Shown: piece by piece, positions 20,457 to 40,246 of the stretch | Layout: every line of letters starts with the position of its first letter | Numbering within the stretch: the stretch's first letter is position 1 | IMG/VR virus record: IMGVR_UViG_3300031963_009547 | Length of the DNA stretch: 64,000 bases | From: a virus | Reading direction: 5' to 3' (one strand) | The notes under the pieces: model-generated | What the model was told of the DNA's origin: nothing | Seen by the model: only the letters and a program-made list of their open reading frames with translations | Database searches by the model: none | Made by a program: the position numbers and the translations under genes

Positions 20457-21365
20457 ATGGCATTAGGAACATATGGTATTGTAAGACCCTCAGATGTATC
20501 ACCAGCCGACGTTGATATAATTTTACACTATACTCCAAGTAGAGATGTGACAGATAACTTTTTACTTAAAAAGTTAAATTCACAAAGTATATTAACACCA
20601 TACTTTCATAGTGCAGATACTGGTGGTAATACAGGTGTTGAGGTACTTGGTGGTTTATATAATTTGAAACTACCGGCAAGTGAATTTAATAAAAAGGGAA
20701 TTTATACTTTATATATAAAACCTGCAGAAATAAGAACTACAATTACAGATTGTGGTGTTTTATCGGCACTACCTAATGTTAAAGGTATTATCATTGATAT
20801 TAACCAAGTACCTGCTCAATTCAGAAATAAATTCACAAATCAAGGGTTAGTAGGGTTTAGAGTGGAATACTTAAACCAAGATGGAAGTAAAATACCTAAT
20901 TTTTATAGAATTATTACATCATCTTTTTTCTGTGAACCTGTAGTTACCGAACAAGTAAACTCATCACAAAAAACAATAAGATATCGCTATGTTGATGCTG
21001 GTAGCGATTTAGTATTTTGTACTTTATCACCATCATCATCACCTACAAACAAACCAACGTCAACACCTTTTATAGGTCAACCTAATCAAAATATTATCGT
21101 TTCAAATACATTCTTCAATCCGATAACAATTGATATTCAAATGGCAGATTACGATTTAGATACAATGGCAATTGCTCTTTATGGTAATCAAACTAAGAGT
21201 ATGGAAGATGGTATTTACACATTATACGATAGTAATAATAATATTTACAAACAATACAACTTGTTTGAGGTTAGGGATAACTTTAATGAACTACTTTATG
21301 AAGTTAGACAAGATAGGGGAGCTAACATAGATTTCAGTAAAAACTTTACAAATATTATTACTTAA
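20457..21365 (+). CDS. Putative structural (baseplate) protein
   Basis: 302 aa, preceded by TATTTATA, TAATG-coupled to the next gene. Confidence 0.55.
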   Translation: MALGTYGIVRPSDVSPADVDIILHYTPSRDVTDNFLLKKLNSQSILTPYFHSADTGGNTGVEVLGGLYNLKLPASEFNKKGIYTLYIKPAEIRTTITDCGVLSALPNVKGIIIDINQVPAQFRNKFTNQGLVGFRVEYLNQDGSKIPNFYRIITSSFFCEPVVTEQVNSSQKTIRYRYVDAGSDLVFCTLSPSSSPTNKPTSTPFIGQPNQNIIVSNTFFNPITIDIQMADYDLDTMAIALYGNQTKSMEDGIYTLYDSNNNIYKQYNLFEVRDNFNELLYEVRQDRGANIDFSKNFTNIIT

Positions 21366-24300
21366 TGGCAAATAAAATTTTCTTCCCACCTATTGGAACC
21401 AATACTTTCGCAGATAATATTGTCGGTGTTCAAATTACCGATGGTGGTGGTTTAACGCAAGGAAATTTTCAATTTACATCTGCAATATATGAAAAATCAA
21501 ATAGAAAATTTGATACGGGTGTTTTTTCAGAAGGGTATACTTTAGAAAATCTTAAAATTGATAACATTGAACAGGCAAAAAGAATTATTGAAAAAAACTT
21601 TAAGGTTTATCCTAATTATGATTTATCGGAAGTAACGAGTTTTTCTCTATATGGTTCGTTGGCTAAAAGATTGTCCGCATCGGCGATTAAAATAATCAAT
21701 AATTTTCCAGCTGCGATTGAAATAATGGCTCGACATCAATCAGGATTATTTGTTGGGGATACGGCATTTAATATTACATATGACAGTGTTGAAGACGAAA
21801 CAACATTTGATATGAATAGTGCTTTATTTAGAAATCCATTTGAAGTTGATTTTTCTGTAAATGCAAGAAGAAATATTGAGGTAAAACCATTCCCTATACA
21901 TCCTATTAGGGCACTAACTTCGGAGTTTGAAAACTACGCTTTGTATTTTGATACACTGGATGTTGAATATCCATTGACAGATTTTACACCGACGATAAGT
22001 ATGTCAGGTGGAAATGTTACATTAACTGTACTTGGAAATCCTTTTAGTGGTTTAACCGCCACAACAGCTTCACTTATATTAAAACCTAACAACACTAAGA
22101 CACAAGAAATATTTAATGATGCATTTGATGAGGTTGAAAAATTTCTTTTAAATCAAAATACCTCACCAAAATATACTGCTAAATTTTCTTATCCTGATTA
22201 TGATGATAATGGTGTATTAACATTGTATAATAGAAAAGTAACTTGGACATTAAGTACATTTTGGAACCTCGATATCAGTAGTAGTAGATTCAACAAATAT
22301 TTGGATGAACTTCAATTGATTGCTGAAAAGTTAGATGAATATAAAACAAATCTTATAAGTAGATTTTTAATAACGGGGGCATTCAAAGAATTTGATACAA
22401 CGGACCAAAAAATAGAAAAAGTTTTACAAATTTATGGTAGAAGTTTTGATGAGGTTAAAAAGTTTATAGACAGTTTAGCATACGTTAATTCAGTTAACTA
22501 CCAAGTAGGAAACGATATACCATCTCAATTATTATCAAACTTAGCGCAAACATTAGGTATTAATCCTAATATTTCACCTATCACAAATGAAGGGTTTTTA
22601 ACATCAGTTTTTAATCCAACACCACAACAGATTTATCAAGGACAAAAAAACACACCAACACCAACAGAACTTAATTACCAATATTATAAAAATTTAATAT
22701 TGAACGCAGCTTACATGTTCAAAACAAAAGGAACAAGACAATCCTTAGAATATGTGATGAGATTTATAGGCGCACCTGATGCGTTAGTCGAGTTCAACGA
22801 AATAATTTATGTTGCTGATACTAAAATCAACGTTAACAAATTTAATCAACAATATGCTCAGATTTCAGGAGGTACTAAATTTGAGACAACACCTAGTTTA
22901 GATAACAGTAATATTTTTAGTATTCAAGGTGTAACATATACGGGATACACTAGTAGTGGTGTAATCAAATTTATTAATACGACACTCGATGACTACGGTG
23001 TTGATTCAGATGGATATCCTAAAAGTCCACAACAAACACAAGACAACTTCTTCCAAAAAGGAGCAGGTTGGTTTGAAAAAAGCCCAAAACACCGTTCAGT
23101 AGAAACTGTTGATGTGGCAAATTCACAATTCACGGGTTCGAATCCATATCTGATTACAGAAGTTGCTCCGTTTAATTTTGGACAAGAGTATATGAATACT
23201 CTTAGAAAGTTCCCTGATATGAATGTTGGATACACATTAACAAGGGTATCTGATAATCAAAAATCTTGGCCTGTTAATCAAGTAGGGACACGTAAAAATA
23301 ATTCAAATTTCAACGGTGTTGATTATTCAGTGAATGACGATAAGTTAGTAATTAACTCTAAAAACATAGAGTTATATATGAATATGGGACAAGGTATTAC
23401 ATACGACGTATGGGATATGTCTGTGAAATATAATTACCCAATACCTAATTCAGGACTTACCGCTCCTTACCCTTATCCTGGTGATATAGATTGGACTATA
23501 ATAAATCCAAAACCAAAAGAAAAAACATTCTTTGAGTTTGCACAAACTTTCTACAACAACTTTATCAATGTGAGAAATAGACAAACAATATTTGATGGTA
23601 AAACAGGAGGGTATCCAACTTTACAATCTATATATTGGAAATATTTGCAATCACAACAAACGGTAGGTATTCCATCAAATGAATACACCTACCAAAAAAT
23701 GATTGACTTTACTTTGGGTATTGGTGATTACTGGCAAAGATTGTTAGAACAAGTAGTTCCTGGTACAACATTGTGGTTAACAGGTCAAAAAATGGAAAAC
23801 TCTATTTTCCACAGACAAAAATATGTTTGGAGAAGACAAAGAGGTTGTCAGTTTATTCCTGTTGATTGTGTTCCTTGTAGATACACAGGACAACCATTCG
23901 CTTACGACTGTATAGACCAAACTCTTCAGTGTAGTTTGATTTTAGATGGTGCAAATGTTTTACAGACACTATTGGCGTCCCAACTTAGCACTAGTGGATA
24001 TACACAAAATCAGTGCGATTTAAATAGTATAGTATCTAATTGGTATGTTGATTGCCGTTTGGATAATCAAGTGTTAGTACAATCTCAATTCTACACAGGA
24101 TATGGTATAAATGATTACCCAACCCAAACACAATTATTAAACGCATTAGATACAGAACTAGAAGAATTATACCAACACGGGCTAAACTATTATTTTGCTG
24201 GTAATACGTTAATTGTGAGTAATTCAACATGTTATGATGATTTTACAAATAGTACTTTATCATTAAACATAGGTTTAGATATTGATATAAATTGTACACC

Positions 24301-24727
24301 ATCTTCCGCAACACCAACTCCAACTCCTACACCAACTCCTACACCTACACCTACGGCAACACCATCGTATGTGAATGCAATTTTCAATTTTGGTGCACCA
24401 ATTACCTCAACACCTAATAATGTTAGTTTTGTGTTTAGAATAAATGGTGGTTCTTGGGTATATATTAATAACCAAACTGTAGGAAACAAACCTTCATCAA
24501 CTCAATTGTATAACACATACCTTAATTCATTTATTACTGGAGATATACTTGAATTTGGTATTTTAAATACTTCAGGTAATAATGTGACTTTCGGACTTGG
24601 TAATAACTCAGGTATATATACAGGTTATTGTGGATTAATTTCTTACTACACTTATACTATACCAAGTACAAACTTTGCTCTGTACATAAACATACAAGAC
24701 ACTGGAAGTGGATATGTAATTTGTTAA
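21365..24727 (+). CDS. Baseplate wedge protein (gp7 / P2 gpI-like core) with a C-terminal (PT)n linker and beta domain
   Basis: LSNLAQTLG...FKTKGTRQSLEYVMRFIG wedge motif, Cys-rich C-terminal region, TPTPTP linker. Confidence 0.65.
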   Translation: MANKIFFPPIGTNTFADNIVGVQITDGGGLTQGNFQFTSAIYEKSNRKFDTGVFSEGYTLENLKIDNIEQAKRIIEKNFKVYPNYDLSEVTSFSLYGSLAKRLSASAIKIINNFPAAIEIMARHQSGLFVGDTAFNITYDSVEDETTFDMNSALFRNPFEVDFSVNARRNIEVKPFPIHPIRALTSEFENYALYFDTLDVEYPLTDFTPTISMSGGNVTLTVLGNPFSGLTATTASLILKPNNTKTQEIFNDAFDEVEKFLLNQNTSPKYTAKFSYPDYDDNGVLTLYNRKVTWTLSTFWNLDISSSRFNKYLDELQLIAEKLDEYKTNLISRFLITGAFKEFDTTDQKIEKVLQIYGRSFDEVKKFIDSLAYVNSVNYQVGNDIPSQLLSNLAQTLGINPNISPITNEGFLTSVFNPTPQQIYQGQKNTPTPTELNYQYYKNLILNAAYMFKTKGTRQSLEYVMRFIGAPDALVEFNEIIYVADTKINVNKFNQQYAQISGGTKFETTPSLDNSNIFSIQGVTYTGYTSSGVIKFINTTLDDYGVDSDGYPKSPQQTQDNFFQKGAGWFEKSPKHRSVETVDVANSQFTGSNPYLITEVAPFNFGQEYMNTLRKFPDMNVGYTLTRVSDNQKSWPVNQVGTRKNNSNFNGVDYSVNDDKLVINSKNIELYMNMGQGITYDVWDMSVKYNYPIPNSGLTAPYPYPGDIDWTIINPKPKEKTFFEFAQTFYNNFINVRNRQTIFDGKTGGYPTLQSIYWKYLQSQQTVGIPSNEYTYQKMIDFTLGIGDYWQRLLEQVVPGTTLWLTGQKMENSIFHRQKYVWRRQRGCQFIPVDCVPCRYTGQPFAYDCIDQTLQCSLILDGANVLQTLLASQLSTSGYTQNQCDLNSIVSNWYVDCRLDNQVLVQSQFYTGYGINDYPTQTQLLNALDTELEELYQHGLNYYFAGNTLIVSNSTCYDDFTNSTLSLNIGLDIDINCTPSSATPTPTPTPTPTPTPTATPSYVNAIFNFGAPITSTPNNVSFVFRINGGSWVYINNQTVGNKPSSTQLYNTYLNSFITGDILEFGILNTSGNNVTFGLGNNSGIYTGYCGLISYYTYTIPSTNFALYINIQDTGSGYVIC
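24308..24366 (+). repeat. (Pro-Thr)n coding repeat
   Basis: [19 protein letters not shown]. Confidence 0.9.
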
Positions 24728-24740
24728 AATTAATTAAAGA

Positions 24741-27700
24741 ATGGCTTGTGTTTCAGGATTAACGAATGGTGTTTATAGTTATATTGATTGTTGTGGTATA
24801 CCAAGATATGGTGCATCAGTAGGTGAAAGTATATGTTTAGATGAAACTTATACTGGTTCATCCTCCGGTGTTTATATCGCGACAGGGCAAACTTGTACCC
24901 AAAACTGTAATCAAGGACCATTAGGGTATAGTTTTATAGTGTCGGGTGTTTGTTCAGCAGCGACAGGTTCAGTAATATTTTCACCTTTTGGTGGTACACC
25001 TCCTTATACGATTGATAACATTACACCTGGTAGTATATCAGCTCAAACATCATTTGGTCAAATTACATTTACGGGATTAACTGGAGGTACCTACGTATTT
25101 AGACTCAATGACACATTAGGGTTACAAAATAACGAATTATATATTAATGTTGCGGTTACACCTTGTTTTGAGGCTAATATTATAAACGCTAGTGGAACAA
25201 CTTGTGGAGACACTAACGGTTTTTTACAAGTCACAGGAACCACAACAGGTTCACCTTATACGATACTATTTTATAAAGACGGAGTTTTACAGAGCGTCGA
25301 TACCACAAATACATTACCATTCGATTATGATAGTTTAGGTGATGGTATATATTATGCAACTATTATTGATAATGGGGGTGCTAGCGCTAACACTGAAAAT
25401 GCGGTAATAAGTGCGAGTACATCAGTCGATTTTGGTTTTTGGGTTGTAGATACGTCAAACTGTACAACTAACTGGGGTAAATTAGCGGTGACAGGTATTA
25501 CAGGAACTGGACCATATACGTATTTGTGGAATAACGGAGAAACAACACAACTTATTACGGGATTAACACAAGGAATTTATTCTTGTACTGTTACAGATTC
25601 TTTAGGATGTGAAACAACTAAGTCGCAAACCGTTGGGGTTGCAGCACCATTAGGACTGTCATTTTTAAGTGCGGTCCAACCTACATGTTTTTCATCAGAT
25701 GGTTCATTAACATTTACAATAAGTGGAGGTTCACAACCACTATATTTCTCCGCAACATCAAGTCAAGTTGGGTATACCCTATCAGATACATTTACATTAT
25801 CTGGTCTACCATCAGGAAATTACAACGTCTTAGTTAGGGACGCAAATTTCTGTCAAATAGTAGTTAATGGAAATTTACTACCACCAAACGGATTTAGTGT
25901 GGTTGGGACTACGGTGACAAATTCATCTTGTAATATAACTAACGGTTCAATTGATGTTAGTATTGCAGGTGCGAACGCTTTTTATACGTACTCACTTTCG
26001 GGGTTAACTGGTAATACAATTCAAACAAATACATCACAAAACCAATCTTATAGTTTTAATAATCTTCAAAACGACACATACTTACTAACCATAAGTGGTA
26101 GTGGTACACAATGTGTATATACAGAAACTATTACTTTAAGTTCTACCGAAAAGTTTCAAATTAATGTATCAACCACAGGTTCAACTTGTGGTCAAACAAA
26201 TGGGACTGCTGATGTTTTGTTATCAACGGGATACACATTACCATTAAATTATGTTTTGAGTAATGGTAATCAGATACTAAATACAACTTTAACTTCAACA
26301 ACATATAATAATTTATCAAGTGGTTCTTATACTATAACAATAACTGATAATGACGGATGTTCCGTATCTACAGGATTTACTATTAGTAGTGGTGGAAGTT
26401 TATTAACAGGAATAAATACTACAAACTGTACAAATGGTAACAATGGAAGTGCCTCAGTTGTAATTTACGACGGTGAGCCACCATTTAGTTATTTATGGTC
26501 AAACGGTAGTACTGGTTCGTCAATAAGTAACCTTTCATCTGGTTTATATGATGTTACAATTACAGATGCATCGGGATGTACCGACACACAATACTTCACA
26601 TTAAATTGTACTGGAAACCTCATCAATAATTACCAAACATTTAATCTTTGTGCAAATACGTTTACAACAACAAGCGGTAACCAAAGAGGTATGTTGGAAA
26701 TGTTAAATGAAGGTTATTTAGATATTACTTCGGGTTATACTAATTGCACATTCAACTCTGCTATTTTTACTTGTGAAATAATAGTTAATGGTAGTGCGTT
26801 TACTGAAACATTCTACACAGCAACAACCCTTAATGATGTTCCACAAGACACTTTGTGGCAATCAACAATTGAATCAATACTTTCAGGTATAACTGAAATA
26901 CAATCATATCAAATAGATTTATTGAACAATACTTTAACTATTACGTCTGATTGTGATGGTGATTACGACCCACTTGCGGATGCTGATTTTAGTTTAGGTT
27001 TAGAAATCGTGTATGACGTTACTTGTTCAGGTTATTTATTCCCAACGCCAACACCTACTGCAACACCTACCGCAACACCAACACCTACGGCTACGCCAAC
27101 ACCAACACCAACACCTACCGCAACACCTACCGCAACGCCGACACCAACACCAACACCTACCGCAACGCCGACACCTACACCTACTGCGACGCCTACTCCT
27201 ACGCCGACCGCAACTCCGACCCCAACACCTACGCCAACGCCAACACCGGTATACTATAATCTTCAATTAAGTATAACAAATGAGACTGCAACATTAAGTA
27301 CTTTCAATATATCATATAGTGTGGATAGTGGTTCAACATGGAATTTATGGCAAAATACAACAACAACAAATCATCCAACATATACTAATTTTGGTGGGTT
27401 AACATTCTTACCTGGCACTGATGTTGAAATAGCATTAACGAATAGTTCAGATAATGATATTTCTTTTGGTGTTGGATTTATTCCATTATTGAGTGTCGGT
27501 GATTATACTTCACTTTGTGGTAAATCTAACCCATTAATTGTACCAACAATAACTGGTAATACTAGTTACTATTTAAATCTCGCAGTTTCAGGAGCAACTT
27601 ATGTGAGTTGCCCATTGCCTACACCAACGCCAACGCCAACGCCAACTGCGACACCTACACCTACGGCAACACCAACTCCTACACCAACGCCAACGCCAAC

Positions 27701-28451
27701 TGCGACACCAACACCTACACCTACGGCAACACCAACTCCTACACCAACGCCAACACCAACTCCAGGGTATCTCGCAAGATTTCCATCAACAACATGGGTT
27801 GATTCAAGTGGAGGTCAATGGGCAACACCACAAATACAGTCAGGTAATTTGAACTATGCAGGAGCACCTAATGAAACGTTAACAATAAGATTTACTTTAC
27901 CTAATTTGATAAGATTTTCAGGTGGTTCATCAATCAACGGAGTATTATATGATGAATATAGTGCAAACACTTTTACCGTTACTACTAACGGTTCAGGTAC
28001 AGGAACATTATCATTCGTAACAAGTGCAAACACTACATCGTCAACATTCGGTCAAAAAGTTGCTTTATTTGAAATAATTGCGTCTTCATCCGGTTCTACC
28101 ATAAATCCTGCTAGTGGTTCTAATAGATTATTATATAGGTACACTAATCCTATTTTTGGAGGTAGACCTTGGATTGGAAACAATGTAATTTCAGCAACTA
28201 CAAGTGGGGATGCGTGTAATAATATAGCGTATGAAACGATATATAGAATCGACACATTTAGTATTCCACCAAACGTAGGAGCCAATGTTTATTCTGGTGA
28301 CACAGGTACAAACCTTGTTAATGGAGACAACAAATGGATTGCAATTACTTATCCTACCGCTCCAAGTGATGAATTAGGTAATTATAATACTAAATATGTA
28401 ATCCAAGTTGATGCCTCAGGTGTGATAACAAATATTCAAACTTGCCCATAA
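24741..28451 (+). CDS. Cys-rich SprB-repeat tail appendage/adhesin with two long (PT)n mucin-like tracts
   Basis: Repeated GGTPPY / [10 protein letters not shown]...[17 protein letters not shown] / [16 protein letters not shown] units (SprB-repeat pattern), plus PT/PTA tracts. Confidence 0.7.
27041..27248 (+). repeat. (Pro-Thr/Ala)n coding repeat, ~69 aa
   Basis: [16 protein letters not shown]...; synonymous codons vary, so the repeat is conserved at the protein level. Confidence 0.9.
27618..27764 (+). repeat. (Pro-Thr/Ala)n coding repeat, ~49 aa
   Basis: [18 protein letters not shown]... Confidence 0.9.
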
Positions 28452-28738
28452 TGCCATCACAACTAATCATATCGGGGGAGACGGGAGGAACACCTCCTTA
28501 TCAGTTTTATGTATGTGACCAATATATGAATAACTGCTTCTTGTTGGGACCAACAGGTGGTACATTTACATTAAATGCTTTTTTTTCAACTGCTCAAGTA
28601 TTACTTATAAAAGTTGTTGACAGTACTGGATGTATGACATTCAAACTTGTATACTGTCCATTCGATACGTTCTTTATATTAACTGAGACAGGTCTCATAA
28701 TAACCACAGAAAGTGGTGATAGTTTAGTTTGGATATAA
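28451..28738 (+). CDS. Small single SprB/Ig-like domain protein (putative adaptor 1)
   Basis: GGTPPYQFYVCD...KVVDSTGC, C-terminal ILTETG.IITTESG. ATG at 28451 overlaps the upstream TAA. Confidence 0.6.
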   Translation: MPSQLIISGETGGTPPYQFYVCDQYMNNCFLLGPTGGTFTLNAFFSTAQVLLIKVVDSTGCMTFKLVYCPFDTFFILTETGLIITTESGDSLVWI

Positions 28739-29050: not shown

Positions 29051-32000
29051 ATGCCAACTTATAATAGACTAACCGACAGAACCCTAGCCACGGGTGTAAC
29101 TCTTACTGATTTAATTCACATAGTAATTACTGGTGACACCTCTCAAAACGCTGCAGGGTCATCTTATAAAGCAACGATTGCCCAATTAGCAAGTATTCTA
29201 ACCGGTGCTACGGGTACTGCAGGAACTGCAGGAACTTCAGGAACAAATGGTACTAGTGGTGCAAACGGAACTTCAGGTACGAATGGTACTAGTGGAGTTG
29301 GAACTAATGGTACTTCTGGAAGTTCAGGATTGTCGGGTACAAATGGAACGTCAGGTACTAGTGGTAGTTCAGGTATTGATGGTACGTCTGGTTCTTCTGG
29401 CTCAAGCGGAATATCGGGAACATCTGGTTCTTCTGGTATTAATGGAACTTCCGGCTCAAGCGGATTATCAGGAACATCTGGCTCTTCTGGTTCAAGTGGT
29501 AGTTCAGGTATTGATGGTACGTCTGGTTCTTCTGGCTCAAGCGGATTATCAGGAACATCTGGCTCTTCTGGTTCAAGTGGAATATCGGGAACATCTGGTT
29601 CTTCTGGTATTAATGGAACTTCCGGCTCAAGTGGATTATCAGGAACATCGGGCTCTTCTGGCATTAATGGAACTTCTGGTTCAAGCGGATTATCAGGAAC
29701 ATCTGGCTCTTCTGGTTCAAGTGGAATATCGGGAACATCTGGTTCTTCTGGTATTAATGGAACTTCCGGCTCAAGTGGATTATCAGGAACATCGGGCTCT
29801 TCTGGCATTAATGGAACTTCTGGTTCAAGCGGAACTTCTGGTTCAAGCGGAACTTCTGGTTCATCGGGAACTAACGGAACATCAGGTATTTCTGGTGTAG
29901 ATGGTACTAACGGAACATCAGGAACCAATGGAACCAGCGGCACTAATGGTAGTTCAGGGACATCGGGTTCTTCTGGCATTAACGGAACGTCCGGTTCAAG
30001 TGGAATATCGGGAACATCGGGTTCTTCAGGCACAAGTGGTTCTTCAGGTATTAATGGAACAAATGGTACTTCAGGTTCTTCAGGTACTAGCGGTTCATCA
30101 GGTTCTAGTGGTGTCGGATTCAATGCTATCCAAACACCATCACTTACAAGAGTATTAACTTCTGATGGTACAACAACAGGTGCAATTGCACAATCAGGTT
30201 TAACATATAATGGTTCACAATTAACAGTTAGTGGTCTTACATATACGAGTGGTATAACATCGGTAAGTGGTATTATTTTTAAACAAGTAACTATTAATGG
30301 TTCTTATACTGCAACCACAGATGATTACATGATTGATATAACAGGCGGTACATTTACCGTATCATTACCAACTGCGGTAGGTCAACAAGGTAGATTATAC
30401 GTAATTAAAAATAATGGTGGAGGTGCTGTTACTGTGGACCCGTTCGGTAGTGAAACTATTGATGGTAAACCATTTGTGATTTTAGGTGAAACAAATAGTA
30501 TTCAATTAGCAAGTAATGGAACTGAATGGGTTGCTTTAGGGTATAACATATCAACAGTAAACTCATCAACAGGCGTATTTGAATTTACAGGATTAACTAT
30601 TGCGTCACCAACAACATTTACCGTGGCACCTGTTAAAGGATGGATTGTTGATGATACAACAAATCCTTTATCACCACAACTTTATTATCTATCATATACA
30701 GGTGGTACATATACCGCGACATATGTTACCGCTAGTACTGAAACTTGGATTTATGTGACAAGTGGGGGAACAATAGTACAATCAAATATTCCTTTAACGG
30801 ACCAAGAAAGAAGACAAAACATTGCTTTAGGTAAATTGGGTCATGCAAATAAAACATCAATCATTAATGCGTTTTCTCAACCTGATTTTGTTTTATCACC
30901 GTTATCACAACTTCGTGATATGTTCGAACCTATTAATTTGATAAATGGGGGAATAACAGCATCTCCAAATGGTACCAATTTAAGTTTTAATACAAGTGCA
31001 GGTTATTTACATGGATTAGGGATTAATTTTGCAAATGATACATTAAATCCTGATTCATTATACGTTTCAGGAACAAATCCTTGTACTTTTCAATATAGAA
31101 CACAAACGGGTGGAACTGCGACTAACGTAACGGTAATTGACCCTACAAAATATGATGTTGGGGGTGTTATAACAACACTATCAGGGACTAAAGCAACAAA
31201 CCAAAGAATATATTTGGTTCAAAATGGTGTGTTCAGAGTTCAATACGGACAAACTGAATATTCAACATTAGCACAAGCAGTTGCGGGTCTTGCAACCGAA
31301 CAATATGTTGAATTTTCAAACTTTAATACTAACGGTATTTTAATTGGTGTTATATCTGTATTAAGTTCAGCTACTGATTTAAGTGATACTTCTAAAGCAT
31401 TATTTTTTAGAGCATCAAAATTTGGTGAGTCAACAGGAGCAGCTGGAGGTAGTGCAACGACAAACTTGCAACAAGCATATAATAATTCAGCAGAACCTGA
31501 AATTTTAACCAATTCAACATTAGGAGCTGTAACAATTAAAAATGGTTCAGGTAATCCAGATTCGACATCAAGTTTACTTGAGGGTCTAAACTCATCTGGT
31601 GGGGTTACATCATTTATCCGTGCTAACGGGTCATTATCAGCAACTACCATTTCAGCAACAACAATATCTGCAACAACATACCAAAACTTACCAAGCGATG
31701 TGGTAATTATTAACTCAACACAGATTCAATCAGGATTTACAGGTGGAGTATTATTCCAAAGTTCGGCAAGTACTGTAAGTCAAACTACTGGATTTACTTG
31801 GGATAATGTAAATAAAAGGTTGGGAATTGGGACTAACTCCCCTCTCTACGACTTAGACGTTTATGGGTCTATCTATCAAAAAACCGGAGAATTATTAATT
31901 ACATCCACAGGTGGTGTTAACAAAGAAGGACCATTTATTGCGTCAAGTGGTGGTGACGAGGTAAGCTCTGATAGAAAAATCCAATTAGGCATTTCAGACA

Positions 32001-33010
32001 ATTCAACTGTACCTGTCGGTATTAATATGTTTGTAACTAACAATTCATTCCCACCAAGCTACATAAACTTCAGAGTAAACAATGCGGATTTAGTTATGAT
32101 GTCCGGTAGTTCTGTTATAATTAGCGGTAATACTCATACAAATGGTATGACAGCAACCACAATTTCTGCAACTACATTATCGACCATTACCGCTAACACA
32201 AATACTATATCAATATTTTCTGCAACTACAGGTACAACCACATCATATTTAGGGTTAGATTCAAATAATAGGGTTATCAAGGCAACAGTGCCAGGCTCCA
32301 ATAATCAGTTATTAACTTCAAATGGGTCGGGGTTAATAAATGCCCAATCAGGATTAACCTATGATGGGTCAACATTAAGATTATTGTATCAATCCGGAGA
32401 TGAAGGTGGTGAAATGTTATTAAGTAAACCTGTTACTAATACCTCAATTTCGGGAACAGGAGTTAGTATTGATGTTTATCAAAATAAATATCGTATATTT
32501 GAACAAGGTGGGTCTGCTAGAGGGGCATATATAGATATTACTGATTTAGATACTTCTGTCGGTGTTAATTTGGCACCATGGAGATATTTGTATGTTACAA
32601 GAGCAACGTCTAATCAAACAATTGGAAGTGGTACATGGGCCAATATCGACATTATATTTAATAATCAAGTAGTATCAAAGGGAATTACTTATAACACAAG
32701 TACAGGTAGAGCGACTTTACCTCCTGGTGTATATAGAATTACCGCTCAACTTGCTTGGCAGGCGGCAGCAGTATACACGATTCAATTTTCTTGTTACGAT
32801 AGCTCAAACAATCAATTGGGTCCTACTGTTGAAATGATACAATCGACAAACAGTACTAATAACATTTCAAATGGTTATTTAGATTTTATCTATACGGTAA
32901 CTAATACGATTGATGTTAAGATTAAAACCACTAATAGTACAAATGCTTTAAGTGGTGAACAGATTAGATTTGATTTGAACACTTCAATGATTATCCAACA
33001 AATAGGTTAA
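29051..33010 (+). CDS. Tail fibre with a Pro-free Gly-X-Y (collagen-like) Ser/Thr-rich stalk and a C-terminal C1q/BclA-like domain
   Basis: ~100 G-X-Y triplets (GTS/GSS/GIN), a fibre domain (VSLPTA...VIKN...ETIDG), a RLGIGTNSP.YDLDV shaft motif, and C-terminal IIFNN...YNTSTG...PGVYRI. Confidence 0.72.
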   Translation: MPTYNRLTDRTLATGVTLTDLIHIVITGDTSQNAAGSSYKATIAQLASILTGATGTAGTAGTSGTNGTSGANGTSGTNGTSGVGTNGTSGSSGLSGTNGTSGTSGSSGIDGTSGSSGSSGISGTSGSSGINGTSGSSGLSGTSGSSGSSGSSGIDGTSGSSGSSGLSGTSGSSGSSGISGTSGSSGINGTSGSSGLSGTSGSSGINGTSGSSGLSGTSGSSGSSGISGTSGSSGINGTSGSSGLSGTSGSSGINGTSGSSGTSGSSGTSGSSGTNGTSGISGVDGTNGTSGTNGTSGTNGSSGTSGSSGINGTSGSSGISGTSGSSGTSGSSGINGTNGTSGSSGTSGSSGSSGVGFNAIQTPSLTRVLTSDGTTTGAIAQSGLTYNGSQLTVSGLTYTSGITSVSGIIFKQVTINGSYTATTDDYMIDITGGTFTVSLPTAVGQQGRLYVIKNNGGGAVTVDPFGSETIDGKPFVILGETNSIQLASNGTEWVALGYNISTVNSSTGVFEFTGLTIASPTTFTVAPVKGWIVDDTTNPLSPQLYYLSYTGGTYTATYVTASTETWIYVTSGGTIVQSNIPLTDQERRQNIALGKLGHANKTSIINAFSQPDFVLSPLSQLRDMFEPINLINGGITASPNGTNLSFNTSAGYLHGLGINFANDTLNPDSLYVSGTNPCTFQYRTQTGGTATNVTVIDPTKYDVGGVITTLSGTKATNQRIYLVQNGVFRVQYGQTEYSTLAQAVAGLATEQYVEFSNFNTNGILIGVISVLSSATDLSDTSKALFFRASKFGESTGAAGGSATTNLQQAYNNSAEPEILTNSTLGAVTIKNGSGNPDSTSSLLEGLNSSGGVTSFIRANGSLSATTISATTISATTYQNLPSDVVIINSTQIQSGFTGGVLFQSSASTVSQTTGFTWDNVNKRLGIGTNSPLYDLDVYGSIYQKTGELLITSTGGVNKEGPFIASSGGDEVSSDRKIQLGISDNSTVPVGINMFVTNNSFPPSYINFRVNNADLVMMSGSSVIISGNTHTNGMTATTISATTLSTITANTNTISIFSATTGTTTSYLGLDSNNRVIKATVPGSNNQLLTSNGSGLINAQSGLTYDGSTLRLLYQSGDEGGEMLLSKPVTNTSISGTGVSIDVYQNKYRIFEQGGSARGAYIDITDLDTSVGVNLAPWRYLYVTRATSNQTIGSGTWANIDIIFNNQVVSKGITYNTSTGRATLPPGVYRITAQLAWQAAAVYTIQFSCYDSSNNQLGPTVEMIQSTNSTNNISNGYLDFIYTVTNTIDVKIKTTNSTNALSGEQIRFDLNTSMIIQQIG
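29204..30118 (+). repeat. Gly-X-Y 9-bp-period repeat with higher-order tandem duplications
   Basis: Recurrent ggaacatctggttcttctggtattaatggaacttccggctcaag units. Confidence 0.9.
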
Positions 33011-33041: not shown

Positions 33042-33055
33042 AAAGAAAAAAACTT

Positions 33056-34252
33056 ATGAAAATATTTGTTCAAATTGCGTCTTATAGAGACCCCGAACTT
33101 TTACCGACAATTAGAGACTGTATTTCAAAGGCAAAACATCCCGAAAATTTAACATTCGGTATTTGTTGGCAACGAGATGAAAGTGAATCAATGGAAGAAT
33201 TTGCAAATGACCCAAGATTCAAAATCTTAGATTACCATTGGTCAAAAAGTAAAGGTTTATGTTGGGCTCGTTCAGAAATTCAAAAATTATGGGAAGGTGA
33301 AGAATACACACTTCAATTAGACTCACATCATAGATTTTTACAAGATTGGGATACTGAGTTAATTGAAATGATGAAATTAACAGGTTCAGAAAAACCAATC
33401 ATCACATCATATGCAGGAATGTATAGACCAAGTGATAATCAATTATTAAATGTTGAACCATATAAAATGGTTGCATCAAACTTCACCCCCGGAGGAACAA
33501 TTCTTTTTAGGCCACATACAATTGAAAATTGGCAAAATTTAGATAAACCAATTCCCGCAAGATTTGTTAGCGGACATTTCTTTTTTACGATTGGAAAACA
33601 TTGTGAAGAATATAAGTATGACCCAAACATTTATTTTGCTGGTGATGAAATAAGTTTATCAATTCGTTCATTTACGTTAGGTTATGATTTATTCCACCCA
33701 CATAAAACCGTTGTATGGCATGAATATACAAGAGAAGGTAGAACAAAACATTGGACCGACTTTAATACAGAAAATTTAAGTACAGGGGTTGTTGAAAAAC
33801 CTTGGTGGGAAATGGACAATGACTCAAAAAGAAGATTGAGACATATGTTACAAGAAGAAGATAACAATATTGATTTAGGTGTTTATGGTCTTGGTGAAGT
33901 AAGAACCCACCACGATTATGAATTATACGCTGGAATTAACTTTAAAGAAAGAATGTTACACCCGAGTACAATTAAAGGTAAAAATCCGCCAATTAATGAT
34001 GAAACTGAGTGGTATTTAAAACAAAAAGAAGTTTACGACTTAGAATTAGAAATTCCATATACCGAAAACTTTAAGTTTATTTATATTGGAGTGGAAGATG
34101 AAAATGGAGATGTTATTTACAGACATGATTTAACAACATATCAAGAAAAATTAAATGTAAAAATTGAAAGTTACGAAAAACCAAGAAAATGGGTTTATTG
34201 GGTTAACGACATAAACGGAGAATGGTCGACAAGACTAGATTATTTATTATGA
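33056..34252 (+). CDS. GT60-like polypeptide/hydroxyproline alpha-GlcNAc transferase (Pfam 'GlcNAc' family)
   Basis: IFVQIASYRDPEL..TI, GICWQ, SKGLCWAR, LQLDSHHRF..DWD, FVSGHFFF, YFAGDEISLSIRSFTLGYDLF.P...VVWHEY, the hallmark motifs of Gnt1/GT60 enzymes. Confidence 0.85.
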   Translation: MKIFVQIASYRDPELLPTIRDCISKAKHPENLTFGICWQRDESESMEEFANDPRFKILDYHWSKSKGLCWARSEIQKLWEGEEYTLQLDSHHRFLQDWDTELIEMMKLTGSEKPIITSYAGMYRPSDNQLLNVEPYKMVASNFTPGGTILFRPHTIENWQNLDKPIPARFVSGHFFFTIGKHCEEYKYDPNIYFAGDEISLSIRSFTLGYDLFHPHKTVVWHEYTREGRTKHWTDFNTENLSTGVVEKPWWEMDNDSKRRLRHMLQEEDNNIDLGVYGLGEVRTHHDYELYAGINFKERMLHPSTIKGKNPPINDETEWYLKQKEVYDLELEIPYTENFKFIYIGVEDENGDVIYRHDLTTYQEKLNVKIESYEKPRKWVYWVNDINGEWSTRLDYLL

Positions 34253-35046
34253 ATATAGGAGCATTTTATCAATCGGGTTATAAATTAGTTGCCTGTTATA
34301 AAGCATTAGAACAATTACGAAAAATTTATCCAAGTATACCCGTAGCGTTATATGAAGACGGTTCGGATATATTAAAACCAGTTGCAGAAAAATTCAATTG
34401 TGTTTATAAAAGAACAGATGTTTTAGGTCAAAACTTAAGACATTCAGGTAGACCTGTTGTTGGTCTTGAAAGTAATTTAGCGTGGCTAAAAAGAATTTAT
34501 GATGCTTGTACCACAACACTAAAAGATGTTGAATGGGTGATACACTATGAAGATGATGTATGGTGTAAAATGGAAATAACAAAACCACCAAAGCATGACA
34601 TAGCGGGAGCAAATGGACCTGCATACACTGAAGGATTATACCAATACTTAAAAGATAGATTCTACGTAACAGACGAATCGAGAAACCATTGGTCACAATT
34701 AGGCTCACTTCAAAGTTATGGTGGTTGTGGAGGAACAATTTTTAGAAGAGAAGCATTTATTGATGCTTACAACCGATTAGATGAAATTGATTGGGAAAAA
34801 ATACAACAATTAGATACAAGACCTATCGAATGGTCTGATGCAAGTTTATCATTTATCATGCAACACGCAGGTTATACAAGTAGTATTTGGAATGATTGGG
34901 CACAATACGATAGTAAAAATCAAGGAAACTGGTTTGATAAAACAGGTTGGAGTGTACCGATGGAAGAGCAGCCTGACGTTGCTTTTATTCATTTATACAA
35001 ACATTTTTACAATTATGAACCTGAAGACATAGATTTAGATTTATAA
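34249..35046 (+). CDS. GT-A fold glycosyltransferase (GT31-like features)
   Basis: IHYEDDVW (DxD-like), YGGCGGTIFRREAF, WSDASLS..MQHAG, C-terminal FIHLYK. ATG at 34249 overlaps the upstream TGA (ATGA). Confidence 0.6.
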   Translation: MNIGAFYQSGYKLVACYKALEQLRKIYPSIPVALYEDGSDILKPVAEKFNCVYKRTDVLGQNLRHSGRPVVGLESNLAWLKRIYDACTTTLKDVEWVIHYEDDVWCKMEITKPPKHDIAGANGPAYTEGLYQYLKDRFYVTDESRNHWSQLGSLQSYGGCGGTIFRREAFIDAYNRLDEIDWEKIQQLDTRPIEWSDASLSFIMQHAGYTSSIWNDWAQYDSKNQGNWFDKTGWSVPMEEQPDVAFIHLYKHFYNYEPEDIDLDL

Positions 35047-35060
35047 AATAAACTTTTGAT

Positions 35061-35068: not shown

Positions 35069-35087
35069 TAATAAAGTTAATACCTGA

Positions 35088-36692
35088 ATGGCAAATGTAG
35101 TTTTTAGTAGTTGTTGTTATAATTTTGTGTTTAGTGCCACGACTTTTCCAGTTACGGCTGCAACAAATACAGTTTATGTTATTAGCGGAGATACAAATAT
35201 CCCAAATGGGTGTTATAAAGTTGTAACAGGAGTTACCGCGAGTACAATATCGACGACAGTCACTGGAACTGCAACATCAGGCACATCCTGTAATGACCCA
35301 TCTTGTTTAGACTGCTGCTCAAGTACATTATGTATTGACATCAATAATTCGACCTATAGCGGATATAGTGGAAATTACCAAATAAGAGGTGGTTATAACA
35401 GTTATCCTTATTGGTCAGGAGGTACGGGTAACTCGGGATTTATTTATTATAATGGAACATTTTGGTGTTTATCTGCAACTTTAGGTGGTAGTTGTCTATT
35501 CTTTGGTTCAAATCCAACATCATCATTATGTCCTGATTTAGATGAAACAATAATGTACACGGGTAGTTGTTCAACACCAACCCCACCTTTAGACCCATGT
35601 TCATCTTTGGACTTTGATGTTTTATTGGAATGCGATATAACAACACCAACCCCCACACCAACTCCAACACCAACCCCCACACCAACTCCGACTCCAACAC
35701 CTACCGCAAATATTTGTAGTGGATTTACGGCTAATATTACAATAGATACGGTTACACCGACACCAACTCCAACACCGACCCCAACTCCAACACCTACACC
35801 ATCAATTACTACATCGGCGGACACAGTGACGTTTGTTGTTGATAGTGGTTTCTTTGAGTGTGGTAATATAAAAGAATTAAGGGATTGTAATACAGGTGAA
35901 ATGTATTACATTAGTGGTCCATTATATATTTCAGGTACAAGTGCTTCTACAGTTACCACAACAGGTACAACGGTTTATGGTATTATAAATGGAAATACTG
36001 TATGTGCTACATATATCCAAAATAGTAATGGTAGTGCAAATGCTTATGTACAATACATAATAACAGCATACACTGGAAGTTGTTCGGTACTTTGTGTTAC
36101 ACCAACACCAACTCCTACCGCAACTCCAACTCCGACACCAACTCCGACACCAACACCAACTCCAACACCTACATATGCGTTCGGAACTTTATTTGTCTTC
36201 ACTTCGTGTACATCTAATAGTATGATTACACAGACAGCATATCCACCGAACAACGTTTCAGTTGGTCAACTATTAAAAACAACAAGTGGTGATTGTTACA
36301 CTTACGTTGGAAATTATATAAATTACGTTGCACCATCAGGATTTGTGGTGGCTAACATAAACGAGTTTACGGCAACTACTGCCACAACTTACACTGATTG
36401 TGTTGATTGTTTAACTGTGATACCTACCACATCTTCATTTAAAACATGGAACGGAAAAGGAGGTTTCTCCTTAAATTGTCCTGTATGTCAAATAACAGAC
36501 TTTGGAAAAGGATTAACTTTCTATACGTCTAATTTGATTACAACTCTTACAACTGGAGTATATGTATTCTCAGACAGCGGATTAACAAGACCAATAGTTG
36601 AAGACTTCATCCAATACGAAAATTACATTTATAGTGTAGGTAAAGATGGTATGTTAACACAAAATTGTAGAGTAAACGGAAATTGTAAGTAA
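35088..36692 (+). CDS. Cys-rich structural protein with three (PT)n tracts
   Basis: Many Cys ([15 protein letters not shown]), PT tracts at ~35643, ~35753 and ~36098. Confidence 0.65.
35643..36173 (+). repeat. Three (Pro-Thr)n tracts
   Basis: TPTPTP... at ~35643-35706, ~35753-35801 and ~36098-36173. Confidence 0.85.
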
Positions 36693-36693
36693 T

Positions 36694-36981
36694 ATGTCAG
36701 TATTAGTAACTATAAATTCAATAACATCAGGTACCGCACCCTACGACATTTGGGTGTGTGATGATTGTAGCACAGGGGCTATTTGTCAGTATATTGCAAC
36801 AACATCAACAGTACCCTATAGTTTTACATTACCTACTGTGTTTGAAACATACCCATCATATGTAATAAAACTTATAGACGATAATGGGTGTATATATTGT
36901 AACGAACAGTGTTACTATAAACAGTTTGAAGACGGAGATTGTTTTGAATTTATGAGCAACGAACCATACGAATTTGAATAA
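36694..36981 (+). CDS. Small single SprB/Ig-like domain protein (putative adaptor 3)
   Basis: ITSGTAPYDIWVCD...IKLIDDNGC, C-terminal KQFEDG.CFEFMS. Confidence 0.6.
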   Translation: MSVLVTINSITSGTAPYDIWVCDDCSTGAICQYIATTSTVPYSFTLPTVFETYPSYVIKLIDDNGCIYCNEQCYYKQFEDGDCFEFMSNEPYEFE

Positions 36982-37005
36982 ACATTGATATATATTAAAT
37001 AAAAA

Positions 37006-38646
37006 ATGGCAACTTTAACATCAAGGACATTAGCAAGTGGAGCAAGTTTAAATGACCTTATACACATTGTAATAACAGGTGACACCTCACAGAGCGCAAA
37101 TGGTTCATCATATAAGGCGAACCTTAGTCAGTTATTACCTTTGTTTACTGGAAGTACAAATACTTTTGTAACGGGTGGTACGTATAATAACACCACAGGT
37201 AATGCTACATTTACTAATAATGCGGGTACTTCATTTACTGTTACTGGTTTTACAACAGGAACAACTCAGGTATTATTGACAGGGGGTACCTATAATAATA
37301 CTACAGGTGTTGCAACTTTCACAAACTCAACAGGTGGTACTTTTACAGTTAGTGGATTCACAACAGGAGCAACCAGTGGTACTGAAGTATTTGTTACAGG
37401 AGGAACTTATAATAACTCTACTGGTACTGCAATATTTACAAACACAACTGGAGGTACATTTAACGTAACAGGTTTTACAACAGGAGCAACCAGTGGTACT
37501 GAAGTATTTGTTACCGGAGGTACAGTTAACTCTACGGGAGGAACTGCCACATTTACTAACTCTACAGGTGGTACATTTACTATTACAGGTATGACAACAC
37601 CGTTTAGTGGTGGTTCAGGTAACTGTATTAATAGTTTATATACCGATAACATATATGCTTGTAATAATGAAATAACTGTTCACCATAGAGTCCAATCAAC
37701 AGGTTCAGACGCTCAAAACATATTAAGTTTTGCTTGGGGATTAACTAACGTTGCTTCGGGTAATTATTCATTCGCCTTTGGTACTGGCACAACCGCTTCA
37801 GGATTAGCCTCACATGCCGAAGGTATAGATACTTTAGGTATTGGTGATTTTTCACATGCCGAAGGAAACATAACAAGAGCGCCGGGAGAAAGTGCTCATA
37901 GTGAGGGATACTCAACAAATGCATCAGGTAATTATTCACACGCCGAAGGAACTGGAACCGGTTCATTTGGAATCGCTTCACACGCAGAAGGAACTGGCTC
38001 TATAGCGAGTGGAAATTACTCTCATGCCGAAGGTTCATCAACAGCTAGTGGTATATTTTCACATGCTGAAGGTGATAGTACAGTAGCCTCAGGTCAATAT
38101 TCACATTCACAAAATAAAGGTGCAATAGCAAGTGGAGATGATTCACACGCTGGTGGGGTCGGAAGTATTGCTTATGGTATTGTTTCATTTTCACATGGTG
38201 ATACTAATGAAGCTAACAGTGGTTTATCTGTTGCGTTAGGTGGTCAAAGAAATATTATTTCTTCTACTGGTGATACTAATAGTGGTGGTATATTTGCCGG
38301 AAAGTATAATGTAATTTCAGGTTTAACGGGTAGTGACCCTGTTTATAACTCAACTATTATTGGAGGTACAGGAAATACGGTAAACTCATTTAATTCGGCA
38401 ATTATCTCAAGTGAAAAATCAATCATAACTGCCGACCATACGGTAATAATAGGGGGGTCAAATATTACAGGTAATACAGGTGATACTGTTTATGTACCAA
38501 ATTTAGTAATATCTAAAAATTATAACTATACACCAACGGGTACTGCCGATACGACAGGAGAACCTGGTTCGGTAACTTGGGATAATACTTACTTTTATTA
38601 TAAAACGAATACAGGGTGGAGAAGAATAAGCGGAACAACTTGGTAA
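37006..38646 (+). CDS. Tail fibre/adhesin with YadA-head-like (beta-roll) repeats
   Basis: N-terminus shared with the 29051 fibre, four GGTYNN.TG.ATFTN repeats, ~14-aa ASGNYSHAEG repeats, C-terminal G.VTWDNTYFYYKT..GWRR. Confidence 0.72.
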   Translation: MATLTSRTLASGASLNDLIHIVITGDTSQSANGSSYKANLSQLLPLFTGSTNTFVTGGTYNNTTGNATFTNNAGTSFTVTGFTTGTTQVLLTGGTYNNTTGVATFTNSTGGTFTVSGFTTGATSGTEVFVTGGTYNNSTGTAIFTNTTGGTFNVTGFTTGATSGTEVFVTGGTVNSTGGTATFTNSTGGTFTITGMTTPFSGGSGNCINSLYTDNIYACNNEITVHHRVQSTGSDAQNILSFAWGLTNVASGNYSFAFGTGTTASGLASHAEGIDTLGIGDFSHAEGNITRAPGESAHSEGYSTNASGNYSHAEGTGTGSFGIASHAEGTGSIASGNYSHAEGSSTASGIFSHAEGDSTVASGQYSHSQNKGAIASGDDSHAGGVGSIAYGIVSFSHGDTNEANSGLSVALGGQRNIISSTGDTNSGGIFAGKYNVISGLTGSDPVYNSTIIGGTGNTVNSFNSAIISSEKSIITADHTVIIGGSNITGNTGDTVYVPNLVISKNYNYTPTGTADTTGEPGSVTWDNTYFYYKTNTGWRRISGTTW

Positions 38647-38647
38647 T

Positions 38648-40246
38648 ATGGGACTTTTAAGTGGTAATAGTTGTAATATAATAACATTGTTTCCTTTAGG
38701 GTTAGAGTGTAACTCAATTAATGCGTCAACACCGCAATCAAGTAATGGTGTTGTTACATTATACATAACAGGTGGAACACCACCATATAATGTTACGTGG
38801 AACACAGGTGCTCAAGGAACACTTCTAACAAGTCTTACACCTGGCGAATACACGGCAACTGTAGTTGACTATTATGGTGACTTTACCGGTACTACAACCT
38901 GTACTGTAGATTATGATAGTTTCTATTTAGAGCAATTTGAGGATTGTTCTAATAGTGGTACATATGCTTATTATTTAGCAAACTTAGTAAATCCTCAATT
39001 CAGTGCAAGTTCTGTTTACGAATTAACAACACAAGTTGGTTGTTGGACAAATAGTGGAACTACATTATATACAGGACAAACGTATATCAATAGTTTCGCT
39101 GATATATTATCAGGACCATATTCAGGTTGTTCAGAATGTTTACCACCAACACAACCAACACCTACGTACCCTTCACAACTTTGTTTCCAACAAACACAAG
39201 GTACTACATTAACTCAAGTAGATTTTTCATCAGGCTCAACGATAAATGGATACCCATCATGGACAAGTATTACTCCATCATATTTAATGTATTACAATAC
39301 AGGTAGTACAAGATGGGAAGTAAGTGGATATACTAATGGAACTGTTTATAGAATATCACCATCAACACCACCTACAGGAAGTTGGGTCATAACAGGACCA
39401 AATGCATTTAACACTTCAATTAACGTTGTGACTGGTGCTTGTGGTAATCCACCACTTACACTTACGGTAAACGCTAATAACCCATTGTGTTCAACACAAG
39501 CTAATGGTTCTGTAACTATAGTGGGTAACGGAGGAGTACCTTCATATACTTATTCATTAAATGGTGTTACATACCAAAACTCAAGTACATTCTTAAATTT
39601 AAATTCAGGAACATATACCGCTTACATTAAAGATTCTTTAGGTACAATAGCAACCCAAACGTTCACATTAACATCACAACAAAACTTCCAAAACTACAAT
39701 GTTAATTTAGTTCTCACACAAGGAAATACGGTTTCTGTTGGTAATTCGTTTACTAAAACATCAACTTGGTCTATAAGTGTTTCTCCAAGTCCACTCCCTG
39801 CTGGAGTTACTGTTAATATGAATTTATTATTTAATATTGGTTGGACTGGGTACACAGCAACACCTACAATCGGACCAACAATAACTAATTCTATAACCAC
39901 AAACAGTAATCCAAATACAACTGTTAGTTTGGTTTCAAGTGGTAATACTACAGGAACAACAATTTTAAGACCTGGTTGTGAAGGTGCATTTATTAATACA
40001 AGTGCAAGAACAACCACATACTCAGTACAATTATCAACCAACGGATTAGCATCGGGTACTGTCGTACAATATATAAACACACCATGTGGTGAAATTAATG
40101 GATGTCCAAACAGTGGAGTCTTAAAAGATACATTATCATTACAGAACATAACGATTTCACCAAACCAATGTAGAAGTATTAGTAGTAACGTTGCACCACA
40201 AACAACGACACTAACGAAGACAGGTATTATTTGTGAAAGAGAATAA
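38648..40246 (+). CDS. Cys-containing SprB-repeat structural protein
   Basis: ITGGTPPYNVTW...LTPGEYTATVVD and NGGVPSYTYSLNG...LNSGTYTAYIKDSLG. Confidence 0.65.
   Translation: MGLLSGNSCNIITLFPLGLECNSINASTPQSSNGVVTLYITGGTPPYNVTWNTGAQGTLLTSLTPGEYTATVVDYYGDFTGTTTCTVDYDSFYLEQFEDCSNSGTYAYYLANLVNPQFSASSVYELTTQVGCWTNSGTTLYTGQTYINSFADILSGPYSGCSECLPPTQPTPTYPSQLCFQQTQGTTLTQVDFSSGSTINGYPSWTSITPSYLMYYNTGSTRWEVSGYTNGTVYRISPSTPPTGSWVITGPNAFNTSINVVTGACGNPPLTLTVNANNPLCSTQANGSVTIVGNGGVPSYTYSLNGVTYQNSSTFLNLNSGTYTAYIKDSLGTIATQTFTLTSQQNFQNYNVNLVLTQGNTVSVGNSFTKTSTWSISVSPSPLPAGVTVNMNLLFNIGWTGYTATPTIGPTITNSITTNSNPNTTVSLVSSGNTTGTTILRPGCEGAFINTSARTTTYSVQLSTNGLASGTVVQYINTPCGEINGCPNSGVLKDTLSLQNITISPNQCRSISSNVAPQTTTLTKTGIICERE

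Follow-up and report, generated by a model that had tools for sequence, protein, structure and literature searches.

Two overlapping glycosyltransferase (GT) genes interrupt the tail-appendage block of a large uncultured phage, and the question raised by this locus is what they glycosylate. The DNA analyzed, which we call the window, is a 64,000-nucleotide (nt) stretch with a GC content of 33% from IMG/VR record IMGVR_UViG_3300031963_009547. It encodes DnaB, ribonucleotide reductase, a gp32-like protein and primase, after which come a baseplate wedge gene and an extended fiber- or adhesin-like block on one strand, in which the two GT genes lie at positions 33056-34252 and 34249-35046. A first-pass annotation of the sequence had proposed that they form an initiator-plus-extender pathway of mucin-type O-glycosylation acting on the Pro-Thr and Gly-Ser/Thr tracts of neighboring virion proteins. 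The gene coordinates behind that proposal are all correct in our check of the open reading frames (ORFs). So is the placement of the pair: the genes overlap by 4 nt, and those flanking them encode fiber- or adhesin-like proteins with SprB repeats, a YadA-head repeat and PHROG tail-fiber matches, with the baseplate wedge gene upstream. Our own reading, held with slightly better than even confidence, is that of a virion-protein O-glycosylation cassette within the tail-fiber module of a jumbo phage, whose host group is probably freshwater Bacteroidota.

The first gene (33056-34252, + strand, 398 amino acids (aa)) encodes a true member of family GT60, as the first-pass annotation had called it. 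The protein matches PF11397 with 225.1 bits against a cut-off of 21 (E = 2.2e-66) and the PHROG glycosyltransferase family phrog_24687 (1e-103), and there are 7130 GT60 matches in the protein collection. Residues D89-S90-H91 and W221-H222-E223 are invariant in 17 phage sequences, with homologues down to 36% identity; replacement of DxD by DxH is peculiar to GT27 and GT60 (PMC7185993). Sequence and profile searches of the PDB with this enzyme found nothing, and its fold was compared through an AlphaFold2 (AF2) model (pLDDT 85.8). The best structural match is mouse GalNAc-T1 with a mucin glycopeptide (8v9q; Z = 21.5 over 275 residues) and the second is Toxoplasma gondii GalNAc-T3 (8uhv; Z = 20.0), with the following GT-A fold at 16.1. 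The fold is thus nearest to the GT27 polypeptide transferases.

The layout of the enzyme also fits this family. A GT-A domain (residues 1 to ~320) is followed by an extra beta domain of ~75 aa (325-398) with six strands in the model. Structural alignments to GT27 stop near residues 303-321, and the beta domain occupies the place of the GT27 ricin lectin domain; a ricin domain has no Pfam match in the protein. GT60 enzymes are described as polypeptide alpha-N-acetylglucosamine (GlcNAc) transferases without a ricin lectin domain (PMC8724618, PMC9472816), and all those characterized act on protein acceptors (PMC7185993, PMC9472816, PMC8724618). From family and modeled fold, the phage enzyme is probably a polypeptide Thr/Ser alpha-N-acetylhexosamine (HexNAc), presumably GlcNAc, transferase and hence an initiator. 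Inspection of the translation by eye reveals no hydrophobic N-terminus, signal peptide or membrane stem, and the enzyme would therefore act in the cytoplasm.

The GT60 ORF ends in TTATGA, and the ATG within this final ATGA (34249) is the start codon of the second ORF, a start that homologues of the second protein share. The product (34249-35046, + strand, 265 aa) belongs to a GT-A family that has no Pfam match at E ≤ 0.1, no PHROG match and no relative in sequence and profile searches of the PDB, the profile search retrieving no GT31 chain at E ≤ 10. Its AF2 model has a GT-A fold (pLDDT 92.9). GT31 members take the first five places among the VIA matches (CHSY3 N-domain, 14.4; C1GalT1, 12.8; B3GalT5, 12.6; with Manic Fringe at Z = 12.6 and B3GalT6 at 12.0 as further GT31 matches), but the GT8 enzyme LgtC (Z = 11.9) and many other GT-A folds (10-12) follow closely, and Foldseek returns GT31 and GT6 mixed. 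The label 'GT31-like', which the first-pass annotation had itself graded below its GT60 call, is therefore fair for the fold and not for family membership. Across 31 sequences, residues E101, D103 and H248 never vary and D102 hardly does (DxD-like, YEDDVW), which supplies the DxD-type acidic motif and C-terminal histidine of metal-dependent GT-A enzymes.

A profile search of 1.84 billion representatives found 526 relatives of the second enzyme. Its domain is fused in some of them to GT25, GT4, GT6, methyltransferase, DUF3431 or Wzy_C domains, and more broadly it is fused or adjacent to GT25, GT4, GT6, GT11, methyltransferase and Glf, in clusters that always start with GT60. Fusion to glycosyltransferase and methyltransferase domains fits a glycan-extending module, and we regard the protein, as modeled, as probably a glycan extender. 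Two fusions in the representative library are noted in their own right: P0290 joins the domain to a Wzy_C O-antigen-ligase domain, and P0261 (1212 aa) joins it to methyltransferase and GT4 domains and contains an intein.

What might these enzymes modify? Six Pro-Thr tracts are present in three window genes, and counting and placing them bears out what the first-pass annotation had said of the genes at 21365, 24741 and 35088. Downstream of the baseplate genes, a conserved protein of 1120 aa (21365-24727, + strand, from its translation) has a single C-terminal tract of 24 aa (nt ~24309-24380). The SprB-repeat fiber- or adhesin-like protein (24741-28451, + strand, 1236 aa; PF13573 SprB, 5e-13) has two long ones, of 69 and 49 aa (nt 27041-27248 and 27617-27764). 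The remaining three are linkers of 23, 17 and 25 aa (nt ~35640-35708, 35754-35804 and 36099-36173) in a Cys-rich 534-aa protein (35088-36692, + strand), known from its translation and an alignment of relatives. No Pro-Thr tract was found in the remaining ORFs of at least 100 aa in the window. Every Thr of the (PT)n tracts sits in a T-P-x-P context, and the GT27 sequon is T/S-P-x-P (bioRxiv 10.1101/2020.06.25.171371). As would be expected of a mucin-type system, GT60 is thus flanked by genes with (PT)n tracts that read T-P-x-P.

The Cys-rich protein at 35088-36692 is our prime candidate acceptor. It directly follows the GT genes in ~30 related loci, and its family keeps all three linkers fixed in place and length (22-24, 12-20 and 19-27 aa) at 52-90% identity; in the SprB protein, tract length ranges from 30 to 96 aa among relatives. 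At the DNA level the tracts repeat imperfectly and mix synonymous codons (Tandem Repeats Finder (TRF) matches of 66-84% at periods of 6 and 12 nt), which points to selection on the protein and not to fresh slippage. The 35088 protein has no Pfam or PHROG match. Of its 28 Cys, 27 are conserved over the same range of identity. So many are unusual in a protein synthesized in the cytoplasm; these residues could bind metal, or form disulfides after lysis.

We followed the neighborhood through other phages with the 1120-aa protein as lineage marker, which gave 491 related stretches in IMG/VR; relatives G006, G007 and G001 served as proxies for the genome of the window phage. In G006 (292 kb, 99% complete), all 27 matches to a (PT)5 DNA pattern fall in two genes flanking the GT pair, and in G007 (229 kb) all 20 fall in two genes within ~3 kb of it. 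In loci L022, L034, L038/L044 and L040, the GT60 cassette is abutted by Pro-Thr-rich proteins whose sequence outside the tracts has no detectable homology to that of the window proteins. The fiber protein at 37006-38646 was dropped as a lineage marker, having a promiscuous domain in common with unrelated phages, and the 52 loci found with it were reused as a background set. There, Pro-Thr tracts occur in none of 48 unrelated tail-fiber loci without GT60 and in all four with it.

Among isolated phages, neither DNA nor protein searches turned up a near relative of the window phage, and a GT60 homologue occurs in only four of them, all Xanthomonas and Stenotrophomonas jumbo phages. One is the cultured phage XacN1, whose ORF334 is 38% identical over 98% of the query. 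Several of its large proteins, ORF325, ORF384 and ORF232/236/237 among them, carry (PT)4 tracts, and one such protein follows the baseplate wedge genes; a homologue of the second enzyme was not found in this phage. Its virion gives two periodic acid-Schiff-positive bands, and phage-encoded virion glycosylation has been suspected (PMC5852040).

Relatedness inflates the counts of phage loci, and the bacterial data are the more independent part of the comparison. GT60 is widespread in bacteria and stands beside small Pro-Thr proteins in several phyla. Since high-GC bacterial loci give spurious P/A/S-rich runs in the wrong frames, a stricter tract rule was applied to them. Strict tracts are present in 12 of 80 bacterial GT60 loci, and in 7-8 of the 12 the tract is in a same-strand gene next to GT60, against 2.3 expected. 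The single (PT)4 site in the whole of G015 (4.4 Mb) adjoins GT60, as does one of three in G018, and two of eight in G016 lie within 3.5 kb of it. Nearly pure Pro-Thr small proteins stand beside GT60 at L121:11496-12047, L126:11563-12240, L146:11524-11991 and L116:10042-10518, in Caulobacterales, Acidimicrobiaceae, Mycobacteriaceae and an unclassified metagenome-assembled genome (MAG); a Tat-like SRRxF(V/L)K motif opens three of these four proteins (L121, L126 and L146). GT60 and small Pro-Thr proteins may constitute an undescribed bacterial 'mucin' module.

Three further bacterial arrangements were seen. L146 has a tandem pair of GT60 paralogues. L125 (Saprospiraceae MAG, 3-Mb contig) and L127 (Planctomycetaceae MAG) have a phage-like order of Pro-Thr protein, GT60, large protein and a shared ~135-aa protein; lying within a bacterial contig, the L125 locus may be a prophage or a clue to the host (Bacteroidota, Saprospiraceae). 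In L149, L155 and L165 (Achromobacter and Paraburkholderia), Pro-Thr tracts of 27-96 aa lie ~4 kb from GT60 on the opposite strand.

Is the enzyme pair itself a fixed unit? GT60 is also present in 42 of the 45 IMG/VR loci found with the second enzyme. Distant loci have a larger cassette of GT60, a GT4-like gene, GT25 and the second enzyme, and in the complete 335-kb genome behind L041 the cassette continues with GT11, a methyltransferase and UDP-galactopyranose mutase. A reverse scan based on the lineage marker shows a different picture immediately before the Cys-rich protein: GT60 stands there alone in L184, L188, L189, L201, L203, L241 and L244, other relatives have a different GT60 (~41% identity) and then an HtrL_YibB gene (as at L213:20721-21512, + strand), and a GT29-like gene (sialyltransferase family) can fill the slot instead (L204:18378-18965, - strand). 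The L213 gene after GT60 was considered as a homologue of the second enzyme and ruled out (hhalign probability 0.1). Because these contents alternate in relatives, the slot is a swappable glycosyltransferase cassette in which GT60 is the commonest head and the second enzyme is accessory. The claim of a fixed initiator and extender does not survive this comparison: close relatives lack the second enzyme or have another gene in its place, and a dedicated extender kept together with its initiator, as a mucin-type pathway would have it, is not what we find. A swapped glycosyltransferase slot beside a conserved acceptor candidate suggests diversification of the glycan, as in O-antigen loci.

The first-pass annotation had asked to be judged on the co-occurrence of the enzymes with Pro-Thr tracts. 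Adjacency in many phage lineages and, independently, in bacteria supports the link, as do the patterns in G006 and G007, and a number of observations weigh against our reading. Enzymes occur apart from tracts: 14 of 45 loci with the enzymes have no Pro-Thr tract within 10 kb, and three enzyme-bearing contigs (58-98 kb, 17-58% complete) have none at all. Tracts are also kept apart from GT60: 13 relatives have tracts (mostly of 10-14 aa) and no GT60 within 10 kb, although a GT60 gene does lie farther away on the contig of one of them. L204 and L210 (contigs 10% complete) have no local GT60 and have the GT29-like gene in the slot; both retain the Cys-rich protein, L204 with two of its three Pro-Thr linkers. 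In XacN1, the GT60 gene lies near genes for DNA polymerase, RNase H and a carbamoyltransferase and not near fibers, and that of L014 likewise adjoins replication genes and a carbamoyltransferase. Seven close relatives do without the second enzyme, so a two-step pathway is not conserved as a fixed one. Finally, the adjacency could be positional, tail-fiber modules being hot spots for accessory genes.

The mechanism that we infer builds on the enzyme family and fold, the catalytic motifs, the gene overlap and the recurrent Pro-Thr neighborhood, as observed above; acceptor, donor, linkage, order of action and benefit would be as follows. Late in infection, the soluble GT60 enzyme would be active in the host cytoplasm and would transfer alpha-HexNAc, most likely GlcNAc from UDP-GlcNAc, to Thr of the (Pro-Thr)n linkers of fiber proteins. 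The Cys-rich 35088 protein would be the first candidate acceptor, with the SprB-repeat protein and the 1120-aa protein as further candidates. The GT31-like enzyme would then add a second sugar to the HexNAc primer, and other glycosyltransferases of the genome may lengthen the chain. The benefit would be a linker that is stiff, hydrated, and protease-resistant or masked.

It is also conceivable, although we hold this only tentatively, that GT60 and (Pro-Thr)n proteins make up a widespread, undescribed cytoplasmic mucin-type module of prokaryotes and phages, from which the eukaryotic GT27 and GT60 initiators descend. Phages would use it to decorate fiber linkers, and bacteria would decorate small Tat-like Pro-Thr proteins that are exported once modified.

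Three other explanations, each of which we consider unlikely, have to be set beside the fiber-linker reading. One of them, which is compatible with it, makes the collagen-like fiber directly upstream the main or an additional acceptor, glycosylated on Thr/Ser of its Gly-X-Y repeats. This 1319-aa tail fiber (29051-33010, + strand) matches PF01391 Collagen (4.5e-41) and PHROG tail-fiber families (up to 3.9e-58). The ~300-aa Gly-Ser/Thr region that the first-pass annotation had seen in it does exist (~nt 29195-30120, Ser/Thr-rich) but is a strict collagen-like Gly-X-Y repeat, with runs of 33 and 270 residues in register, and not a mucin-like stalk. Gly-X-Y length ranges from 36 to 756 residues among relatives, and a near-perfect, recent duplication at 29529-29896 (144-nt period, 99% matches in TRF) indicates that fiber length is changing fast. 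The fiber gene ends only 45 nt before GT60, and collagen-like genes lie directly upstream of GT60 in many relatives. There is also a precedent in the Clostridioides difficile GT-A enzyme SgtA, encoded beside bclA3, which adds beta-GlcNAc to Thr of GPT collagen repeats (PMC7157674). However, large collagen-like fibers occur without GT60 within 10 kb (L252, L253 and L228), which makes the GT60-collagen link the weaker one; many GT60 loci have no collagen-like gene; and a peptide groove with a preference for T-P-x-P would not readily accommodate a folded triple helix.

Alternatively, the Pro-Thr tracts may be plain, extended and unmodified interdomain linkers and the glycosyltransferases morons with another purpose in a hypervariable fiber region. 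We give this little weight. The persistence of tracts in relatives that lack GT60 in the DNA sampled, the free swapping of slot content (GT60 alone, GT60 with HtrL, GT29-like) and the widely varying tract length in the SprB protein are points in its favor. It does not account for a slot that is always filled by a glycosyltransferase of some family, nor for the recurrence of the association away from phage fiber modules, in bacteria whose genomes have very few Pro-Thr sites. The conserved linker lengths of the 35088 family and the imperfect repeat of the tract DNA, which argue for selection at the protein level, also speak against it.

It is similarly improbable that the enzymes act on something other than protein, either host envelope glycans (lipopolysaccharide (LPS), capsule or lipid-linked sugars), with exclusion or receptor masking as the purpose, or the bases of phage DNA, with the position among fiber genes being incidental. 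Distant cassettes that hold GT25 (an LPS family), GT11, a methyltransferase and Glf do resemble O-antigen loci, and fusion of the second-enzyme domain to a Wzy_C O-antigen-ligase domain in one protein points the same way. For DNA as target, one may cite the position of GT60 in XacN1 near DNA polymerase and RNase H, and the fact that phage glycosyltransferases often modify DNA (PMC12619734). Yet the GT60 fold is specifically nearest to polypeptide GalNAc-transferases, and the characterized GT60 enzymes all use protein acceptors. The scanned ORFs of the GT60-headed clusters include no flippase (Wzx), polymerase (Wzy) or priming phosphoglycosyl-transferase, and the repeated GT60/Pro-Thr adjacency in bacteria would be left unexplained. 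As a separate observation, the window encodes a D12-class N6-adenine DNA methyltransferase (51421-52239; PF02086, 1.8e-46), and this gene suggests that the phage protects its DNA by methylation. A further idea, that the second enzyme is a galactofuranosyl-transferase, as might be proposed from Glf (UDP-galactopyranose mutase) adjoining its homologue in seven loci (including L018:10807-11910, L037:2274-3353 and L041:12161-13246), which hints at galactofuranose in some cassettes, and from its match to the GT31 Galf-transferase GfsA (Z = 11.9), fails for the window lineage on phage genes alone because a 99%-complete relative lacks Glf.

The rest of the appendage block adds a few features. Two paralogous single-domain ORFs of ~95 aa (28442-28738 and 28739-29023, + strand) and a third that aligns with them (36694-36981) share the motif TSGT-PY...VCD...C...IK..D..GC, and each is located after fiber genes. 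In relatives L002 and L012, this domain and a Pro-Thr tract are combined in one 172-aa protein directly upstream of GT60. The block ends with two fiber- or adhesin-like proteins identified by Pfam and PHROG (37006-40246, + strand), one with a YadA-head repeat and the other with an SprB repeat, and the tract scan finds zero Pro-Thr tracts in them. Scans for promoters, terminators and TAnnTTTG gave nothing above chance.

To our knowledge, few phages have been shown to glycosylate virion proteins with enzymes of their own, and those enzymes belong to other families; our literature search found no published link between GT60 and Pro-Thr proteins of phages or bacteria. If the fiber-linker reading is true, a mucin-type initiator acting on Pro-Thr linkers would be a second, apparently widespread route of virion glycosylation. 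It would offer a testable reason for the common occurrence of Pro-Thr linkers in fiber and adhesin proteins, and would bear on how receptor-binding appendages of abundant freshwater phages are protected or masked. Eukaryotic mucin-type initiation would then have its origin in prokaryotes and the viruses that infect them.

Several known systems share parts of this arrangement. Freeman and colleagues (2023, as cited in PMC12619734) reportedly described glycosylation of mycobacteriophage virions at the C-termini of capsid and tail tube. In these phages and in chlorovirus PBCV-1 (Vp54), virus-encoded cytoplasmic glycosyltransferases act on the virus's own structural proteins, as proposed here; other enzyme families and acceptor sites are involved, and neither Pro-Thr tracts nor GT60 figure in the descriptions of those systems. 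The SgtA/BclA3 system of C. difficile resembles the window in having a soluble GT-A enzyme encoded beside a repetitive, Thr-rich fiber substrate, and in placing O-linked GlcNAc on Thr, as we propose for GT60. It differs in its beta linkage, its GT family, its GPT collagen acceptor and its location on a bacterial spore surface (PMC7157674). XacN1, with its Schiff-positive virion proteins, is like the window phage in its GT60 homologue and Pro-Thr tracts, one of them beside baseplate wedge genes, and unlike it in having GT60 beside a carbamoyltransferase and replication genes and no homologue of the second enzyme.

The animal mucin pathway (GT27 followed by the GT31 enzyme C1GalT1) provides the best structural match of the first enzyme (GalNAc-T1, Z = 21.5) and the second-best match of the second (C1GalT1, Z = 12.8), and it has the initiator-then-extender logic and T-P-x-P sequon in common with the system proposed for the window. 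In the window, however, there is no Golgi, transmembrane stem or lectin domain, the second enzyme lacks GT31 membership by sequence, and the extender is dispensable in close relatives. The protist GT60 enzymes (Trypanosoma cruzi OGNT; Dictyostelium pp-alphaGlcNAcT2 and Gnt1) share with the first enzyme the hidden Markov model family, the DxH motif, a GT-A fold nearest to GT27 and the lack of a ricin lectin domain, and their acceptors are Thr/Pro-rich, like the window candidates. Dictyostelium Gnt1 is soluble and cytoplasmic; the window enzyme is soluble too and would likewise act in the cytoplasm. What distinguishes the window enzyme from its protist relatives is that it is encoded by a phage, carries an extra C-terminal beta domain of ~75 aa and has putative acceptors in the linkers of a virion.

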